In this document: one piece after another, positions 3,437-52,799 of the stretch
Layout of the letters: every line of letters starts with the position of its first letter
Position numbering within the stretch: the stretch's first letter is position 1
Assembly (NCBI RefSeq): GCF_036507355.1
Contig: NZ_AP027877.1
DNA length: 64,000 bases
Strand: one strand, 5' to 3'
Origin: Escherichia coli
GTDB taxonomy: Bacteria; Pseudomonadota; Gammaproteobacteria; Enterobacterales; Enterobacteriaceae
Made by a program: the position numbers and the translations under genes
The notes under the pieces: generated by a model
The model's input: only the letters and a program-made list of their open reading frames with translations
The model's database searches: none
Told to the model about the DNA's origin: nothing

Positions 3437-5148
3437 TGAGCGAAAAACATCCAGGGCCTTTAGTGGTCGAAGGAAAACTGACAGACGCCGAGCGCATGAA
3501 GCTTGAAAGCAACTACCTGCGCGGCACCATTGCGGAAGATTTAAACGACGGTCTGACCGGCGGCTTTAAGGGCGACAACTTCCTGCTGATCCGCTTCCAC
3601 GGCATGTATCAGCAGGATGACCGCGACATCCGCGCCGAACGTGCTGAACAGAAGCTGGAGCCGCGCCATGCGATGCTGTTGCGCTGCCGTCTGCCGGGTG
3701 GAGTTATCACCACCAAACAGTGGCAGGCGATCGATAAATTTGCCGGTGAAAACACCATCTATGGCAGCATTCGCCTGACCAACCGCCAGACATTCCAGTT
3801 CCACGGCATTCTGAAAAAGAACGTCAAACCGGTGCACCAGATGCTGCACTCGGTCGGTCTTGATGCGCTGGCGACCGCTAACGACATGAACCGTAACGTA
3901 CTCTGCACCTCGAACCCTTACGAGTCGCAGCTGCACGCAGAAGCGTACGAGTGGGCGAAGAAAATATCTGAACATCTGCTGCCTCGTACCCGCGCGTATG
4001 CGGAGATCTGGCTCGATCAGGAAAAAGTCGCCACCACTGATGAAGAACCGATCCTCGGCCAGACCTACCTGCCGCGTAAATTCAAAACCACGGTAGTGAT
4101 CCCGCCACAGAACGATATCGATCTGCACGCCAACGACATGAACTTCGTGGCAATCGCCGAAAACGGCAAGCTGGTGGGCTTTAACCTGCTGGTGGGCGGT
4201 GGGCTTTCCATCGAACACGGCAACAAGAAAACCTACGCCCGCACCGCGAGTGAGTTTGGCTATCTGCCGCTGGAGCATACGCTGGCAGTGGCGGAAGCCG
4301 TCGTGACAACTCAGCGTGACTGGGGTAACCGAACCGATCGTAAAAATGCCAAAACCAAATACACGCTGGAGCGCGTGGGGGTTGAGACGTTTAAAGCGGA
4401 AGTGGAGCGTCGCGCGGGGATCAAATTCGAGCCGATTCGCCCGTATGAGTTTACCGGACGCGGAGATCGTATTGGCTGGGTTAAGGGCATTGATGATAAC
4501 TGGCACCTGACGCTGTTTATCGAAAATGGTCGCATCCTTGATTATCCGGGGCGTCCGCTGAAAACCGGCCTGCTGGAGATCGCGAAGATCCACAAAGGTG
4601 ATTTCCGCATTACGGCGAACCAGAATCTGATCATCGCCGGTGTGCCGGAAAGCGAGAAAGCGAAGATCGAGAAGATCGCCAAAGAGAGCGGGTTAATGAA
4701 TGCCGTCACGCCGCAGCGTGAAAACTCAATGGCCTGCGTCTCGTTCCCGACTTGCCCGCTGGCGATGGCGGAAGCGGAGCGTTTCCTGCCGTCTTTTATC
4801 GACAACATCGATAATTTAATGGCGAAACATGGTGTCAGCGATGAGCATATCGTGATGCGTGTAACAGGCTGCCCGAACGGTTGTGGTCGCGCGATGCTGG
4901 CGGAAGTGGGCCTGGTGGGTAAAGCGCCGGATCGCTACAACCTGCATCTTGGCGGCAACCGCATTGGGACACGTATCCCACGGATGTATAAAGAAAACAT
5001 CACCGAGCCGGAAATCCTGGCGTCGCTTGATGAACTGATAGGGCGCTGGGCGAAAGAGCGCGAAGCGGGTGAAGGCTTCGGCGACTTTACGGTGCGTGCG
5101 GGCATCATTCGCCCGGTGCTCGATCCGGCGCGCGATTTGTGGGATTAA
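3436..5148 (+). CDS. cysI: sulfite reductase hemoprotein beta subunit
   Basis: 570-aa ORF with C-terminal siroheme/4Fe-4S cysteine cluster ([16 protein letters not shown] ... [10 protein letters not shown]). Confidence 0.95.
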
Positions 5149-5165
5149 CCATCAGCCCGGTCTTG

Positions 5166-5203
5166 TAGGCCTGATAAGACGTGTGAGCGTCGCATCAGGC
5201 AAG
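5166..5203. repeat. REP-like palindromic element in the cysI-cysH spacer
   Basis: Palindrome gcctgataagacgtgtgagcgtcgcatcaggc read directly from the sequence. Confidence 0.6.
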
Positions 5204-5221
5204 GCAAACAGTGAGGAATCT

Positions 5222-5956
5222 ATGTCCAAACTCGATCTAAACGCCCTGAACGAACTGCCGAAGGTAGATCGCATTCTGGCGCTGGCGGAAACTAACGCCC
5301 AACTGGAAAAATTGGACGCTGAAGGCCGCGTAGCCTGGGCGCTGGATAATCTGCCCGGTGAATATGTGCTTTCTTCCAGCTTCGGCATTCAGGCGGCGGT
5401 GAGCCTGCATCTGGTGAATCAGATTCGCCCGGATATTCCAGTGATCCTCACCGATACCGGTTACTTGTTCCCGGAAACCTACCGCTTTATTGACGAGTTA
5501 ACGGACAAACTCAAGCTCAACCTGAAAGTGTACCGTGCTACCGAAAGCGCAGCCTGGCAGGAAGCACGCTACGGCAAACTGTGGGAGCAGGGCGTTGAAG
5601 GCATTGAAAAGTACAATGACATCAACAAAGTCGAACCGATGAACCGGGCGCTGAGAGATCTGAATGCGCAAACGTGGTTTGCTGGCCTGCGCCGCGAACA
5701 ATCCGGCAGCCGCGCCAATTTACCGGTGCTGGCAATTCAGCGTGGCGTATTTAAAGTGCTGCCGATTATCGACTGGGATAACCGAACGATATATCAGTAT
5801 CTGCAAAAACATGGCCTGAAATATCACCCATTATGGGACGAAGGATATTTATCGGTGGGCGATACCCATACAACCCGTAAATGGGAACCCGGCATGGCGG
5901 AAGAAGAAACGCGTTTCTTTGGCTTAAAAAGGGAATGTGGGTTACACGAAGGGTAA
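5222..5956 (+). CDS. cysH: phosphoadenosine phosphosulfate (PAPS) reductase
   Basis: ORF 5069..5956; start at internal [14 protein letters not shown] (244 aa); C-terminal ECGLH motif. Confidence 0.93.
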
Positions 5957-5973
5957 ATATTGCCGGATAAATT

Positions 5974-6012
5974 AAACGCCTCTGTCAGAAATGATGGGGG
6001 CGTTTTTATTTT
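5974..6012 (+). terminator. rho-independent terminator downstream of cysH
   Basis: Stem aacgcc/ggcgtt (with G-rich 3' arm) followed by tttttatttt. Confidence 0.6.
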
Positions 6013-6128
6013 GCGAGCAGCATTCCTGATTTTAAACGTGAACGCCGCTGGAAGAATTATCAGGTATAGAATGGCGTCGGGTGCTTGAGGCTGTCTGGCG
6101 TTAAGCATTCGCGAGGTTCCAGATGGAC

Positions 6129-6181
6129 AAAAGCCCCAGGCGATATTTCTATCAACCTGAGGCTCGCGTTCGAACGTAGCA
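6129..6181 (-). ncRNA. candidate Sok-like antisense RNA of the hok locus
   Basis: Minus strand: -35 TTGCCT (6216..6211), 17-bp spacer, -10 TAACAT (6193..6188), then about 55 nt ending in an 8-bp hairpin (gcctcagg/cctggggc) plus UUUU; antisense to the hok leader. Confidence 0.4.
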
Positions 6182-6219
6182 ATTCGGATGTTAGTCTCTT
6201 CTTTGCAGGGAGGCAAGAC

Positions 6220-6372
6220 ATGCTAACAAAATATGCCCTTGTGGCAATCATAGTACTGTGTTGTACAGTACTGGGATTCACGCTCATGGTAGGCGACTCG
6301 TTATGTGAGTTGAATATCAGAGAGCGTGGTATGGAGTTTAAGGCAGTTCTCGCTTACGAATCGAAGAAGTAG
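6220..6372 (+). CDS. Hok/Gef-family type I toxin (small membrane peptide)
   Basis: 50-aa product [50 protein letters not shown], closely resembling chromosomal Hok peptides (HokE-like as I recall it); SD gcagggagg upstream; leader begins with the hok-type motif ggtgcttgaggctgtctggc. Confidence 0.8.
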
Positions 6373-6737
6373 CCACCACGTGGGGGTAAAACCCCGCGTA
6401 TTGAATTGTGATGGTTTGGTCTCCTGCACCCTTTTTTAAATTTATATTTTTTATGTGAATATATTGTCTCTATTTATTATTATGAATTTCAAATGAAAAT
6501 CATAAATTTATTCACAATATAAATGTTTTATTGGCTGATATATATCACAGATAATTTTTAAAATATGCGTAAATATCCTTTAAGTTTACTGAAGGATAAA
6601 AATATTGTGACTTTCTTTGATTTCTGGGGAAAAACCCGACGCGACGAGAAAGAAGGGGGTGACGACTATCACCTTCTTTGCTGGCATTCGCTGGATGTGG
6701 CCGCGATGGGCTATTTAATGGTTAAAAGAAATTGCTT

Positions 6738-6746
6738 CGGGCTGGC
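6738..6746. repeat. IS1 target-site duplication, left copy (CGGGCTGGC)
   Basis: Identical 9-mer immediately flanks both IS1 ends. Confidence 0.85.
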
Positions 6747-6761
6747 GGTAATGACTCCAAC

Positions 6762-7265
6762 TTATTGATAGTGTTTTATGTTCAGATAATGCCCGATGAC
6801 TTTGTCATGCAGCTCCACCGATTTTGAGAACGACAGCGACTTCCGTCCCAGCCGTGCCAGGTGCTGCCTCAGATTCAGGTTATGCCGCTCAATTCGCTGC
6901 GTATATCGCTTGCTGATTACGTGCAGCTTTCCCTTCAGGCGGGATTCATACAGCGGCCAGCCATCCGTCATCCATATCACCACGTCAAAGGGTGACAGCA
7001 GGCTCATAAGACGCCCCAGCGTCGCCATCGTGCGTTCACCGAATACGTGCGCAACAACCGTCTTCCGGAGCCTGTCATACGCGTAAAACAGCCAGCGCTG
7101 GCGCGATTTAGCCCCGACATAGCCCCACTGTTCGTCCATTTCCGCGCAGACGATGACGTCACTGCCCGGCTGTATGCGCGAGGTTACCGACTGCGGCCTG
7201 AGTTTTTTAAGTGACGTAAAATCGTGTTGAGGCCAACGCCCATAATGCGGGCTGTTGCCCGGCAT
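6762..7265 (-). CDS. insB: IS1 transposase InsB (InsAB' C-terminal part)
   Basis: 167-aa [30 protein letters not shown] ... NIKHYQ. Confidence 0.9.
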
Positions 7266-41472: not shown

Positions 41473-42015
41473 ATGTTTACCTTTATCAAAAAAGTCATCA
41501 AAACCGGCACGGCGACCTCGTCTTATCCGCTGGAGCCGATTGCGGTTGATAAAAACTTCCGTGGTAAGCCAGAGCAGAACCCGCAGCAGTGCATCGGCTG
41601 CGCGGCCTGCGTCAATGCCTGCCCGTCAAACGCCTTAACGGTTGAAACTGACCTCGCCACAGGAGAGCTTGCGTGGGAGTTTAATCTCGGGCGTTGCATC
41701 TTCTGTGGACGCTGCGAAGAAGTTTGCCCGACGGCGGCGATCAAACTGTCGCAAGAGTACGAACTGGCGGTGTGGAAGAAAGAAGACTTCCTGCAACAGT
41801 CCCGCTTCGCGCTGTGTAACTGCCGCGTCTGCAATCGTCCTTTCGCCGTTCAGAAAGAGATCGACTACGCCATTGCGCTGCTTAAGCACAACGGCGACAG
41901 CCGCGCGGAAAACCACCGCGAAAGCTTTGAGACTTGCCCGGAATGTAAGCGCCAGAAATGCCTGGTGCCGTCCGACCGTATTGAACTGACTCGCCATATG
42001 AAAGAGGCCATCTGA
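41473..42015 (+). CDS. hycF: formate hydrogenlyase subunit 6 (ferredoxin-type)
   Basis: 180-aa ORF with two 4Fe-4S motifs. Confidence 0.93.
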
Positions 42016-42782
42016 TGAGCAATTTATTAGGCCCCCGTGACGCCAACGGCATTCCGGTCCCGATGACGGTGGATGAATCCATCGCCAGTATGAAGGCGTC
42101 GTTACTGAAAAAAATCAAACGCTCTGCCTACGTTTACCGCGTGGACTGCGGCGGCTGCAACGGCTGCGAAATCGAAATTTTCGCCACGCTTTCGCCGCTG
42201 TTTGATGCAGAACGCTTCGGCATTAAAGTCGTTCCTTCACCGCGTCATGCGGATATTTTACTGTTTACCGGCGCGGTCACCCGTGCAATGCGATCCCCTG
42301 CGCTGCGAGCGTGGCAGTCCGCGCCGGACCCGAAAATTTGTATCTCCTACGGTGCCTGCGGTAACAGCGGCGGGATCTTCCACGATCTCTACTGCGTGTG
42401 GGGCGGTACGGATAAAATCGTCCCGGTGGATGTTTATATCCCTGGCTGCCCGCCAACGCCTGCCGCCACGCTGTACGGCTTTGCAATGGCGCTCGGCCTG
42501 CTGGAGCAGAAAATTCACGCCCGTGGGCCGGGTGAGCAGGATGAACAACCGGCGGAGATCCTGCATGGCGATATGGTGCAGCCGCTGCGTGTGAAAGTGG
42601 ATCGCGAAGCACGTCGACTGGCGGGTTATCGTTACGGTCGTCAGATTGCCGATGATTACCTTACACAGTTAGGGCAGGGCGAAGAACAGGTTGCACGCTG
42701 GCTGGAAGCGGAAAACGATCCGCGTCTGAACGAGATTGTCAGCCATCTGAATCATGTTGTTGAAGAGGCGCGTATCCGATGA
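42015..42782 (+). CDS. hycG: hydrogenase 3 small subunit
   Basis: 255-aa ORF with CGGCNGCE and GCPP motifs. Confidence 0.93.
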
Positions 42783-43189
42783 GTGAAAAGGTGGTGTTCA
42801 GTCAACTGAGCCGTAAATTTATTGATGAGAACGATGCCACGCCCGCCGAGGCGCAGCAGGTGGTCTATTACAGCCTGGCGATTGGTCACCACCTTGGGGT
42901 TATCGATTGCCTGGAAGCGGCGCTCACCTGCCCGTGGGATGAATATCTGGCATGGATTGCCACTCTGGAGGCGGGCAGCGAAGCCCGCCGCAAAATGGAA
43001 GGTGTGCCGAAATATGGTGAGATCGTCATCGACATTAACCATGTGCCGATGCTGGCCAATGCATTCGATAAAGCCCGGGCAGCGCAAACTTCGCAGCAGC
43101 AGGAATGGAGTACAATGCTGTTAAGTATGCTGCATGATATTCATCAGGAAAACGCCATCTATTTGATGGTGAGGAGACTGCGTGACTGA
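42779..43189 (+). CDS. hycH: formate hydrogenlyase maturation protein HycH
   Basis: 136-aa ORF in conserved position. Confidence 0.9.
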
Positions 43190-43652
43190 CGTTTTACTCT
43201 GTGTTGGCAATAGCATGATGGGCGATGATGGCGCAGGTCCGCTGCTGGCGGAAAAGTGCGCCGCCGCGCCGAAAGGTAACTGGGTGGTGATTGACGGCGG
43301 TAGCGCACCGGAAAACGACATCGTCGCTATCCGTGAACTGCGCCCTACACGACTGCTGATTGTCGACGCCACGGATATGGGGCTAAACCCCGGCGAGATC
43401 CGCATCATCGACCCGGATGACATCGCCGAGATGTTTATGATGACTACCCATAACATGCCGTTGAACTACCTTATCGACCAGTTAAAAGAAGACATTGGCG
43501 AAGTGATTTTCCTCGGCATCCAGCCGGATATCGTCGGCTTTTACTACCCGATGACCCAGCCGATTAAAGATGCGGTAGAAACGGTTTATCAACGACTGGA
43601 AGGCTGGGAAGGGAATGGCGGCTTCGCGCAGTTAGCGGTAGAAGAAGAATAA
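43182..43652 (+). CDS. hycI: hydrogenase 3 maturation endopeptidase
   Basis: 156-aa [27 protein letters not shown]. Confidence 0.93.
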   Translation: MTDVLLCVGNSMMGDDGAGPLLAEKCAAAPKGNWVVIDGGSAPENDIVAIRELRPTRLLIVDATDMGLNPGEIRIIDPDDIAEMFMMTTHNMPLNYLIDQLKEDIGEVIFLGIQPDIVGFYYPMTQPIKDAVETVYQRLEGWEGNGGFAQLAVEEE

Positions 43653-43676
43653 TTCTTCATCAGGGAATTCAGGGAA

Positions 43677-44450
43677 TTGAACATCAGAACAGGGATGTGC
43701 GCTTTTTTATTGAGCTTAGTGCAGTCTGCACAGGCCACCAGCTTTACCGAATATCTGCCAATGAGTGGCAGCGAATATGCGCAAAAGCGGGCGCTGAAAC
43801 CTCTCCTGACCATGCCTTATTATACCGAGCAAACTTGGCATTTTAGAAAAATCGGCGTTGCTGGCGTGACGCTTGAGAAGATGCCAAATGAAGAGGATTA
43901 CTGGCAATTAACCGCTAAAGACCGCGCGGGTAAATCCTGGACGGTGCCAGTGGGGTTGCTGGCAAATATGGCGGGCAAAGGGCAGCTCTATCGCGCCGAT
44001 CTGGATCGTAACGGCATTCAGGATCTGGTTATCTGGTTGCCAAGTGCCGGTAATGGTCTGGCGCCCTATGCACATTTAATCCTCATGACGTTCACGCACG
44101 AAGGCCGTCCCTGTGTCTTTGAACCCTGGGGATTCTACACTGCAAGCAAAACTGGCGTAGATGATTTGCTGGATTTACAAGGCAATGGTCACACGCAATT
44201 GCTGGATATGCAGTTTAATTCTGGTTACTGGATAACCAGTCTGTATCAGGTAAAAGACGCCAAATGGCAGCGTGTTCACGGCTGGTTTGGCAAGTTAAGC
44301 TATCCCGCGCTCACGCGTTTTACTTATACCCCCAACCGTAAACTCGTCCTCAAACCCATCGCCGGGCGCGACACACAAACGGAAGATCTGTCGCTGACGC
44401 AGCGTTGCTTGATAAAGGGGGATATGCTTGATGGGGTGAATCAGAACTGA
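43677..44450 (+). CDS. secreted protein of unknown function with two FG-GAP-like D-x-D-x-N-G-x-x-D loops
   Basis: 257-aa ORF starting 24 nt after the hycI stop; N-terminal signal peptide (CAFLLSLVQSAQA|TS); motifs ADLDRNGIQDLVIW and DLLDLQGNGHTQLLD. Confidence 0.6.
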   Translation: MNIRTGMCAFLLSLVQSAQATSFTEYLPMSGSEYAQKRALKPLLTMPYYTEQTWHFRKIGVAGVTLEKMPNEEDYWQLTAKDRAGKSWTVPVGLLANMAGKGQLYRADLDRNGIQDLVIWLPSAGNGLAPYAHLILMTFTHEGRPCVFEPWGFYTASKTGVDDLLDLQGNGHTQLLDMQFNSGYWITSLYQVKDAKWQRVHGWFGKLSYPALTRFTYTPNRKLVLKPIAGRDTQTEDLSLTQRCLIKGDMLDGVNQN

Positions 44451-44611
44451 CTTTTTGCAGAGTGGTTATGAGGATTTTGGGGGTAATTATATCACGCGCA
44501 AGTGTTTACATATTGTGAACTTGGATTTGATGAGCTATAGTTTCCGAACACATGAGGATAGAACTCGCAGATGTGGCTGTTTACTTACTATAAGGAAGTT
44601 AAAACTTAAAA

Positions 44612-44923
44612 ATGCACATCATTTCTAAAGCGCCATTTGAAGAGTCTGCGCGTAAATATCCTAACGACGCTCTGGCTCTTCAGGCATTGTATCGGGTTAT
44701 TAAGGAAACGGATTTTTCTACGCCAGAAGAAATGCGAACGGCTTTTCCCAACCTCGACAATTTTAAATATCGCAACAAATGGTACGTTCTGGATGTCGGC
44801 GGGAACAATCTTAGGGTTATTGCCTACATAAACTTTGTTAATAAGCGGTTCTTTGTGAAGCACATAACGAATCACGCAGAGTATGACAAACTGACACGTT
44901 ACTACAGAGAGAACAAAGAATGA
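44612..44923 (+). CDS. HigB-like type II toxin (RelE/ParE superfamily)
   Basis: 103-aa ORF MHIISKAPFEESARKYPND ... FPNLDNFKYRNKWYVLDVGGNNLRVIAYINF, collinear with E. coli HigB as recalled; toxin gene precedes and overlaps the antitoxin gene (ATGA), the inverted order typical of higBA. Confidence 0.75.
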   Translation: MHIISKAPFEESARKYPNDALALQALYRVIKETDFSTPEEMRTAFPNLDNFKYRNKWYVLDVGGNNLRVIAYINFVNKRFFVKHITNHAEYDKLTRYYRENKE

Positions 44924-45339
44924 CTGCTAATGCTGCACGCGCTGTTAAAGCAACAAGAGAACTGGTCAATGCAGTCCCCTTTCTGGGAGGCAGTGACTCA
45001 GAAGATGATTATCGTGAAGCACTGGAACTGGTCGAATATTTGATTGAAGAAGATGACACCAATCCACTTATCGACTTTCTGGCGAGCCGCATTGCAGAGT
45101 ATGAAAACAACAACGAAAAGTTTGCAGAGTTCGACAAAGCCGTTGCGGCAATGCCGGTTGGCGTGGCGTTACTTCGCACGTTGATTGATCAACATAATCT
45201 GACCTATGCGGATTTGAAGAACGAAATCGGCTCTAAATCCCTGGTCAGTCAGATTTTGTCTGGACAACGATCCCTGACAATATCCCACATTAAGGCACTT
45301 TCAGCCCGATTTGGCGTTAAGCCGGAATGGTTTCTTTGA
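44920..45339 (+). CDS. HigA-like antitoxin (C-terminal XRE-type HTH)
   Basis: 139-aa ORF with C-terminal HTH region GSKSLVSQILSGQRSLTISHIKALSARFGV. Confidence 0.75.
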   Translation: MTANAARAVKATRELVNAVPFLGGSDSEDDYREALELVEYLIEEDDTNPLIDFLASRIAEYENNNEKFAEFDKAVAAMPVGVALLRTLIDQHNLTYADLKNEIGSKSLVSQILSGQRSLTISHIKALSARFGVKPEWFL

Positions 45340-45365
45340 TTTTGACTGATGCCAAACTCCAGATT

Positions 45366-45444
45366 GCCCGATGCGCAGTGCTTATCGGGCCTGCATAGTT
45401 CGTGCGACATGTAGGCCGGATAAGGCGTTCACGCCGCATCCGGC
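45366..45444. repeat. BIME-like pair of REP palindromes
   Basis: gcccgatgcgcagtgcttatcgggc and ggccggataaggcgttcacgccgcatccggc. Confidence 0.65.
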
Positions 45445-45452
45445 ACGGTTGC

Positions 45453-48343
<2,891 letters not shown>

Positions 48344-52718: not shown

Positions 52719-52799
52719 GCCGGATGCGGCGTAAATGCCTTATCCGGCTTACATATGCGCTCCGCGTAGATCGGATAAGACGCGCCAGCGTCGCATCCG
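52719..52799. repeat. BIME-like pair of REP palindromes between hypF and norW
   Basis: gccggatgcggcgtaaatgccttatccggc and cggataagacgcgccagcgtcgcatccg. Confidence 0.65.

Follow-up and report, generated by a model that had tools for sequence, protein, structure and literature searches.

Organization of the hycI-ascB segment

The window analyzed here is a 64,000-nt stretch of Escherichia coli contig NZ_AP027877.1 (assembly GCF_036507355.1), and the subject of this work is a segment of about 1.8 kb (43653-45450) that lies in it between hycI, with which the named genes of the hyc (formate hydrogenlyase) operon end, and ascB. The segment carries a gene for a predicted exported protein, here called hyp, a pair of HigB/HigA-like toxin-antitoxin (TA) genes and two repetitive extragenic palindromic (REP) sequences. 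An earlier note on the sequence of the window had taken the three genes for a single insertion. The results presented below argue instead for a segment that is likely made up of two layers, an old and often-lost hyp gene and a HigB/HigA cassette inserted later, in a decaying accessory pocket 3′ of the hyc operon.

The left backbone flank, hycI (43182-43652, plus strand), is an open reading frame (ORF) annotated in every matching E. coli record. It is followed on the same strand, after a gap of 24 nt, by hyp (43677-44450), an ORF supported by synteny and by a structural model. Its TTG start at 43677, with AGGGA ten nucleotides upstream, yields a protein of 257 amino acids (aa); the RefSeq start is the ATG at 43695, which yields 251 aa. 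A tandem duplication, cagggaatt-cagggaatt (43661-43678), lies upstream of the TTG and overlaps it, and K-12 lacks about 16 nt at this place, the TTG included. An AT-rich spacer of 161 nt separates hyp from higB (44612-44923, plus strand), which encodes a 103-aa toxin of the RelE superfamily, by homology a ribosome-dependent mRNA endonuclease. In the toxin-first order, higB overlaps by 4 bp (ATGA) with higA (44920-45339, plus strand), the gene of a 139-aa antitoxin and probable autorepressor with a C-terminal HTH_3 domain. Further downstream, REP1 (about 45364-45393, plus strand) and REP2 (45411-45444, minus strand; 34 of 34 positions of the REP consensus, with 0 matches expected in shuffled sequences) form an inverted pair, i.e., a bacterial interspersed mosaic element (BIME; 45364-45444). 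The right backbone flank, ascB (45453-46889, minus strand; 6-phospho-beta-glucosidase), is an ORF annotated in RefSeq; its stop codon occupies 45453-45455 of the minus strand, and it is convergent to the genes of the segment.

The exported-protein ORF, the higBA-like pair and the two inverted REPs before the ascB stop are thus all present where the earlier note had placed them. Its statement that insertion sequences (IS) and integrases are missing from the borders also holds, as no transposase or integrase ORF was found at either border of 43653-45450. No long direct or inverted repeats were found flanking the whole 1.8-kb segment, and transposon-like ends were ruled out on this ground. An Rfam search of positions 43000-46000 returned only a sub-threshold match to the REP-derived naRNA4 family, at the BIME, and we therefore see no structured RNA in the islet. 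The base composition and codon usage, which the note had proposed as a check, split the segment: the GC content of hyp is 50.5% (56% at third codon positions, GC3), and that of the higBA cassette is a low 42.9% (GC3 of 47% for higB and 44% for higA). The GC3 of the flanks is 61-66%, and the GC content of the whole window is about 53%. The components are of kinds already known and are annotated in RefSeq, so the finding is real but ordinary in kind and overturns no established view; a literature search returned no published description of this locus, which does not prove that the locus is undescribed.

Forms of the locus in complete E. coli genomes

The locus was surveyed in 5,426 complete E. 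coli genomes, a set that is clinically biased and whose members are non-independent. At least 80% of the region 43100-45900 was covered in only 1,167 of them. Full-length hyp is present in 1,461 genomes, and about 830 more contain just its first ~155 nt. Both higB and higA were found in 1,091 genomes, and higA alone in 1,417 (about 26%). The K-12-type spacer, which holds a scar of hyp (see below), occurs in 2,704 genomes (49.8%). The junction of hyp and higB is contiguous, i.e., all three genes are present together, in only 747 genomes (13.8%), or 747 of the 2,508 that bear higA. The accessory, strain-variable nature that had been claimed for the segment is borne out by these counts, and the three genes are far from being a constant part of E. 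coli genomes with normal core-gene composition. The locus is single-copy in every case and is on a plasmid in none.

Six forms can be described from representative records. The full form contains hyp, higB and higA. In the second form, hyp and higA are present and positions 44474-44884 are deleted; in the third, a 5′ remnant of hyp is joined to higA by deletion of 43859-44890 (e.g., in strains AVS0578 and CEA212U). In the fourth form, higBA is present without hyp, and a different upstream arm adjoins hycI; the fifth (E. coli AF3) contains hyp only, and the sixth (K-12, O157) contains neither hyp nor higBA. The forms of the locus are nested deletions. An E. coli-type hycI-hyp-higA-ascB arrangement was also seen in a 1,647-bp contig of a metagenome-assembled genome labelled Collinsella sp. 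(84-100% aa identity); in an actinobacterial assembly, this contig is almost certainly Escherichia contamination.

Ancestry and loss of hyp

Orthologues of hyp follow hycI in several genera. The gene order is hycI-hyp-hydN-hypF in Salmonella enterica, hycI-hyp-ascB-ascF in Phytobacter diazotrophicus and hycI-symE-hyp-parDE-symE-ascB-ascF-ascG in Klebsiella spallanzanii. Within Escherichia, it is hycI-hyp-hydN in E. whittamii and a cryptic-clade strain and hycI-hyp-higBA in E. albertii. The 158-nt hycI-ascB spacer of MG1655 reads ...acaGGGATGTtcttgatggggtgaaccagctctga|tgccaaatg..., in which the start region of hyp is joined to its last ~25 nt. The 3′ part of this scar is identical to the end of intact hyp in AF3, the hyp-only strain. 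Because of the synteny after hycI across genera and of the K-12 scar, hyp is, as far as comparison of sequences can tell, ancestral at this site and was lost by K-12.

The deletion junction reads cagGGATGTtcttgatggggtgaaccagctctga in MG1655 and in two other compared loci, and the O157 junction is the same. A 7-nt direct repeat, GGGATGT, has its left copy at 43692-43698 (plus strand), at the deletion junction of K-12/O157-type strains; the right copy corresponds to positions 44419-44425, which read GGGATAT in the allele studied here and GGGATGT in alleles of the AF3/E. whittamii type. K-12 and O157 thus appear to have lost hyp by a microhomology deletion of about 727 bp between GGGATGT repeats. 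In the E. albertii type strain NBRC 107761 (local positions 6001-6770), the reading frame of hyp is broken into two overlapping segments, with hydN immediately behind; hyp appears to be a frameshift pseudogene there, which adds a further independent route by which the gene was lost. Truncated forms of hyp are common in Salmonella.

Insertion of the higBA cassette

The higBA cassette (promoter region, higB and higA) is an 899-bp block on the plus strand, 44451-45349. It abuts the hyp stop codon on the left and stops ~15 bp short of REP1 on the right. In the hyp-positive genomes without TA genes (E69, AF3, E. whittamii and Salmonella), the hyp stop codon TGA is directly followed by TGCCA or TGGCA and then by REP1. 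The pentanucleotide ACTGA is present at both ends of the block (44446-44450 and 45345-45349) and may be a target-site duplication or microhomology; the pre-insertion sequence of AF3 reads TCTGA|TGCC, so that only CTGA is common to it and the cassette flank. The alignments and the foreign base composition of the block indicate that higBA was inserted at the hyp stop codon separately and at a later time, with a polarity that rests on outgroups without higBA (Salmonella, Phytobacter and E. whittamii).

The nearest relatives of HigB outside Escherichia (77-79% identity) are found in Klebsiella aerogenes, Kosakonia, Cronobacter and Mixta. Relatives of higBA with 71-73% nucleotide identity are present on more than 500 enterobacterial plasmids, 467 of them from Klebsiella, with others from Enterobacter and Cronobacter. 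The insertion, precisely at the hyp stop, would then have taken place inside the genus Escherichia, with a relative on a plasmid as the probable source.

Two further loci bear on this site. In Escherichia sp. MOD1-EC7003 (local positions about 6772-6801), a 30-nt filler, CTTTTCACGACGAAGAATCAGTCAGACTGA, lies between the hyp stop and the REP. It starts with CTTTT and ends with GACTGA, as does the higBA cassette, and may be what a deleted cassette left behind or a small insert of other origin. In K. spallanzanii (local positions 4422-6814), the hycI-ascB slot contains two symE toxin genes and parDE around the hyp orthologue. The position between hycI and ascB seems to collect different TA modules in different genera.

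The BIME

The two-REP BIME is identical in MG1655 and in the TA-less hyp-positive strains. No junction of the higBA insert was found within or at the REP units, and the BIME is unchanged at the empty site. On this comparison, the BIME is best described as conserved backbone, neither part of the insert nor a recombination border.

Other elements have entered the BIME. IS621, an IS of the IS110 family, is located in it between higA and ascB in the O104:H4 strain 2011C-3493 (local positions 3742-5133) and also in strain UC4224. IS621 is reported to target REP sequences, and the BIME would be a natural target site for it. In E. coli AHB19 and AVS0578 (local positions 5241-6150 in one of the two) and in one E. 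albertii strain, a minus-strand gene for a protein of 142-145 aa, with a weak match to DUF4259 (E 0.014), is present between the two REPs (equivalent to 45390-45427). E. coli AHB19 and the E. albertii strain encode the same 142-aa protein, with 100% identity. In the same loci, the whole ascGFB operon is deleted and the last 57 nt of ascB are left before hydN. Elsewhere in the window, a second REP-like element with 3 mismatches to the consensus used was found at 52719-52752 (plus strand).

HigB and HigA

HigB matches PF09907 (HigB_toxin; E 1.8e-23, model positions 4-73 of 74), and its RefSeq name is "type II toxin-antitoxin system HigB family toxin". A phmmer comparison with K-12 HigB (5IFG_A) gave an E-value of 1.9e-22 over residues 1-100, with 40 of 100 residues identical. 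HigA matches HTH_3 (E 7.9e-09, residues 85-138) and K-12 HigA (5IFG_B; E 2.5e-35, residues 9-138, 61 of 130 identical). The two proteins can thus be assigned by homology to the type II TA family, as a paralog of K-12 ygjN/ygjM at another locus.

The pair shares with K-12 HigB/HigA (YgjN/YgjM; PDB 5IFG, 6KML and 5YCL) a PF09907 toxin and an HTH_3 antitoxin that align over their full lengths, similar sizes (103/139 aa here and 104/138 aa in K-12), a 4-bp overlap and the reverse gene order. This "reverse", toxin-first organization has been described for higBA (PMC7167474). The pair studied here differs from the K-12 pair in sequence (40% identity for HigB and 47% for HigA), in its location between hycI and ascB rather than at ygjNM, and in being strain-variable; it is nearer to copies on plasmids and chromosomes of Klebsiella, Cronobacter, Kosakonia and Enterobacter (77-79% aa and 71-73% nucleotide identity). 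No experiments on this copy of HigBA were found in the literature.

A σ70-like site lies upstream of higB, with a -35 element TTGTGA (44513-44518), a 17-nt spacer and a -10 element TATAGT (44536-44541). It overlaps an imperfect palindrome, GTTTACA-TAT-TGTGAAC (44504-44520). The 19-nt core of the palindrome, gtgtttacatattgtgaac, shows no variation among the eight aligned cassettes, one of which has an otherwise unrelated upstream region. The palindrome is likely the HigA operator, and the region 44502-44541 (plus strand) a putative autoregulated higBA promoter. In HigBA and other RelE-family systems, the toxin cuts mRNA on the ribosome, and the antitoxin sequesters the toxin and autoregulates. 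By homology, HigB would cleave ribosome-bound mRNA, and HigA would bind and neutralize HigB and repress the cassette promoter through the palindrome with its C-terminal HTH domain. A fall in HigA would then stop translation, and the role of the pair may be addiction or stabilization, or abortive phage defence. In the hyp-linked cassettes, a Shine-Dalgarno (SD)-like AAGGAAG is located ~13 nt from the higB ATG (aaggaagttaaaacttaaaaATG; 44594-44614). The higBA-only variant lacks the 8-nt aacttaaa and has a more usual SD spacing of 5 nt; the longer spacing might lower translation of the toxin in the form studied here.

The higB ORF is intact in 1,091 genomes, with a ratio of nonsynonymous to synonymous substitution rates (dN/dS) of 0-0.26. 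Two different deletions removed higB, and each ends 30-35 nt before the higA start. Segregating sites in 14 sequences of higA comprise 22 synonymous and 3 nonsynonymous ones; for higB, which is less constrained, the numbers are 12 and 7. All sampled orphan higA genes from complete genomes encode WP_000126294.1, as does the gene studied here, with up to 16 nucleotide differences. In this small sample, the pattern is consistent with a cassette that decays toxin first and a HigA with a possibly retained role. The two deletions have left about a quarter of E. coli genomes with an intact higA and no higB. The locus resembles known cases of orphan antitoxins and of toxin-first decay of chromosomal TA loci in that at least two independent deletions have left higA alone, in about 26% of genomes; the orphan higA of this locus differs in lying downstream of an inducible metabolic operon and in showing no aa change in the sampled sequences. 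Another TA locus, of the type I hok/sok kind, is indicated elsewhere in the window by an Rfam match to sok antitoxin RNA at 6079-6235 (plus strand; 105 bits, E 7e-23, above the gathering threshold).

The hyp product

As judged by inspection, the N-terminus of the hyp product, MNIRTGMCAFLLSLVQSAQA|TS, resembles a Sec signal peptide, with predicted cleavage after AQA (codons 43677-43736, plus strand); none of the 13 aligned homologues lacks the hydrophobic core or the AxA motif. A confident AlphaFold2 model from 72 sequences (pLDDT, the predicted local distance difference test, 93.4; pTM, the predicted template modelling score, 0.88) is nearly all beta, with an N-terminal helix at residues 3-16. 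No Pfam match was obtained even at E <= 10, and none in NCBIfam or PADLOC. A profile search showed that the family comprises 328 clusters at 50% identity across Proteobacteria. Its members are mostly 310-390 aa long, and the enterobacterial form, of 250 aa, is without the C-terminal extension. Weak matches (E <= 0.1) to FG-GAP_3 were seen in 27 of 72 family members and to FG-GAP in 10 of 72. Relatives in the AlphaFold database are named "Periplasmic or exported protein" (E. coli 55989, Salmonella) or, among distant ones, "VCBS repeat-containing protein". Like FG-GAP/VCBS proteins (PF13517, PF01839), the hyp product has DxDxNG-type loops (ADLDRNGIQDLV; DDLLDLQGNG); it differs from them in having only about two motifs in a mature protein of 237 aa, which is not a full seven-bladed propeller. 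It would thus be a Sec-exported periplasmic protein with an all-beta FG-GAP/VCBS-like fold.

The dN/dS of hyp is 0.13-0.34 at all distances, including comparisons between Escherichia, Salmonella and Klebsiella, and 66 positions are invariant across the 13 homologues. Ratios in this range indicate a real, constrained gene. Those of the hyc neighbours are 0-0.2 (mostly 0-0.06), and the ratio of hyp is 5-10 times higher, so that purifying selection on hyp appears to be looser than on them.

The E. coli alleles of hyp fall into three clades with up to 15.5% nucleotide difference, compared with a maximum of 3% for hycG in the same species. One of the clades, AHB19/LTC101, shares 96.8% identity with an E. 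albertii allele, and for the clade of the sequence studied here the E. whittamii allele (93%) is a nearer match than the other E. coli alleles are. Among E. coli strains, the synonymous divergence (dS) is up to 0.57 in hyp, 0.11-0.27 in hycI and 0.02-0.13 in hycG. The deep allelic divergence of hyp seems to reach into the adjacent core gene hycI (43182-43652), whose dS contrasts with the 0-0.13 of hycG/hycH (42015-43189). The allele relationships and the dS values point to a divergence centred on hyp, through old allelic lineages or interspecies exchange.

A possible function is suggested by PliI, X-Tfi and Tsi1, which have been described as sharing a common fold of periplasmic peptidoglycan-hydrolase inhibitors (PMC10933484). 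Like PliI, X-Tfi (XAC2610), Tsi1 and CarG, the hyp product has a predicted signal peptide, which was judged by inspection and in 13 homologues. It differs from them in having no significant sequence similarity, in structural scores that are modest and mixed with unrelated propellers, and in its size, about twice that of PliI. No inhibitory loop was identified in it, and its gene is surrounded in Enterobacteriaceae by hyc, asc, hydN and TA genes, with no gene for an effector or hydrolase next to it. No linkage of hyp to a cognate effector or hydrolase was found in Enterobacteriaceae and in distant relatives, the latter mostly represented by short contigs. The contexts of four distant relatives were mostly short contigs or unrelated neighbours (e.g., a response regulator and a sensor kinase), and in Leminorella the neighbours are an autotransporter and a chorismate-binding enzyme. 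Since no conserved partner gene of hyp emerged, guilt by association failed. The resemblance to periplasmic inhibitors is thus a lead rather than membership, and the proposal that hyp encodes a binding or inhibitor protein of the PliI/X-Tfi/Tsi1 kind is tentative, with the odds against it.

Discussion

We propose that hyp is an old resident gene of the hycI-ascB position, dispensable and repeatedly lost, and that the higBA cassette was added at its stop codon and is now decaying. Since hyp starts 24 nt after hycI and a scan of the sequence between them found no terminator-like site, hyp would most likely be read as the tenth cistron of the formate- and FhlA-controlled hyc transcript. Several observations weigh against parts of this account. 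The case for co-transcription of hyp with hyc is drawn from spacing alone, symE separates hycI from hyp in Klebsiella, and in Leminorella hyp stands in an unrelated context. The 5-bp ACTGA repeat fits an insertion mark and a substrate of precise deletion alike, and a promoter scan found 4 sites versus 3.3 in shuffled sequence, i.e., no excess. Finally, neither hyp nor its distant relatives were found to have an effector or hydrolase gene that recurs beside them.

The earlier note had the three genes arrive together, by recombination at the REP/BIME that it saw as the boundary of the islet, or else be ancestral and lost from K-12-like strains. A single horizontally acquired 1.8-kb islet would account for the absence of the segment from K-12/O157-type strains and its presence in a minority of genomes, and the lack of an IS or integrase beside an adjoining BIME, which is a real insertion target for IS621 (O104:H4) and the DUF4259-like gene (AHB19-type strains), might seem to favour entry through the REPs. 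Yet this model is contradicted by the cross-genus synteny of hyp after hycI and by the K-12 scar: only the 899-bp higBA block appears to have been inserted, and hyp and higBA differ in base composition and occur without each other. Nor is the route supported, since the cassette begins at the hyp stop, ends at 45349, ~15 bp before REP1 and outside the REP, and the BIME is intact at empty sites and the same in MG1655, which has no islet. We regard a single insertion through the BIME as highly improbable; the alternative of ancestral presence and loss stands for hyp and fails for higBA. As improbable is a tripartite TA or anti-phage unit of hyp and higBA, in which the exported protein would be an accessory or sensor, after the manner of PD-lambda-2, a validated three-gene abortive-infection system whose B component is a toxic HigA-like protein with a C-terminal peptidase and whose third gene is P4-antitoxin-like (Vassallo et al. 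2022, PMC9519451). The three genes are adjacent on one strand, and HigB and HigA match the PADLOC profiles PD-Lambda-2_A (E 6.8e-16) and PD-Lambda-2_B (E 2.4e-14). However, the 139-aa HigA matches only positions 9-115 of the 402 of PD-Lambda-2_B and has no peptidase domain, higA is followed by the BIME and ascB rather than a third gene, and hyp, which has no PADLOC match, is upstream, predicted to be exported and far older than the cassette. Membership in PD-lambda-2 was rejected on this architecture. The hyp-higB junction is contiguous in less than a third of the higA-bearing genomes (747/2,508), and the 161-nt spacer with its own promoter-like site parts the two genes. As hyp is found without higBA and higBA without hyp, and as higBA has a promoter-like site and a conserved palindrome of its own, it is unlikely that the three genes are one functional or transcriptional unit.

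Two further explanations concern what the layers do now. In one, hyp is a dying gene without current function, and its allelic divergence reflects relaxed constraint before loss. Indeed, about 73% of complete E. coli genomes have no full hyp (2,704 carry the scar, about 830 only the 5′ remnant, and others have no hyp), the gene is frameshifted in the E. albertii type strain and often truncated in Salmonella, and its dN/dS exceeds that of its hyc neighbours 5-10-fold. Against this, its dN/dS is far below 1 across genera, the 66 invariant positions have been kept, the ORF is intact in 1,461 genomes and the family spans 328 clusters in Proteobacteria; moreover, dS is also raised (up to 0.57 versus 0.13 in hycG), which relaxed constraint leaves unexplained. 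We consider a dying hyp unlikely. The other explanation makes higBA the part that matters functionally, as an abortive-infection module against phages, and orphan HigA an anti-addiction immunity factor against plasmid or phage HigB, or a stand-alone regulator. TA systems, including HigB-like ones, can provide abortive-infection defence (PMC9519451), and HigBA relatives are frequent on plasmids of Klebsiella, Enterobacter and Cronobacter. About 1,417 genomes carry orphan higA, in which as many as 16 synonymous differences have left the protein the same, and both higB deletions stop 30-35 nt short of the gene. On the other side, the conservation of HigA was measured on 14 sequences only, toxin-first decay is expected even without an orphan function, since a cell that still has the toxin dies if it loses the antitoxin, and the locus lies outside a defence island, flanked by hyc and asc genes. 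A defence role for higBA is possible, and this explanation as a whole is doubtful, albeit less so than that of a dying hyp.

A still more specific combination can be formulated, in which hyp represents a family of periplasmic PliI/X-Tfi-like inhibitor or immunity proteins, serves as the tenth hyc cistron in gut fermentation and carries an ancient cross-species polymorphism, and orphan HigA is a selected anti-addiction factor against plasmid HigB. We give this combination little credence, slightly less than the dying-gene explanation. If it were true, the allele clades and the recurrent presence and absence of hyp would be in keeping with selection, balancing or diversifying, exerted by an external hydrolase or toxin that varies.

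On the two-layer reading, hyp flags a conserved, uncharacterized exported family; its alleles in E. coli diverge unusually deeply, and it is probably expressed together with formate hydrogenlyase. The higBA layer is a small TA cassette that appears to have been inserted without any mobility gene and is now decaying, and its natural series (full pair, two orphan-antitoxin deletions and empty site) over thousands of genomes suits a test of orphan-antitoxin selection. The hycI-ascB spacer of K-12 should be annotated as a gene remnant, the proof being the 35-nt scar in MG1655. The locus is thus a clean, datable case of a misleading "strain-specific islet", in which half of the segment is ancestral DNA that the reference strain has lost.

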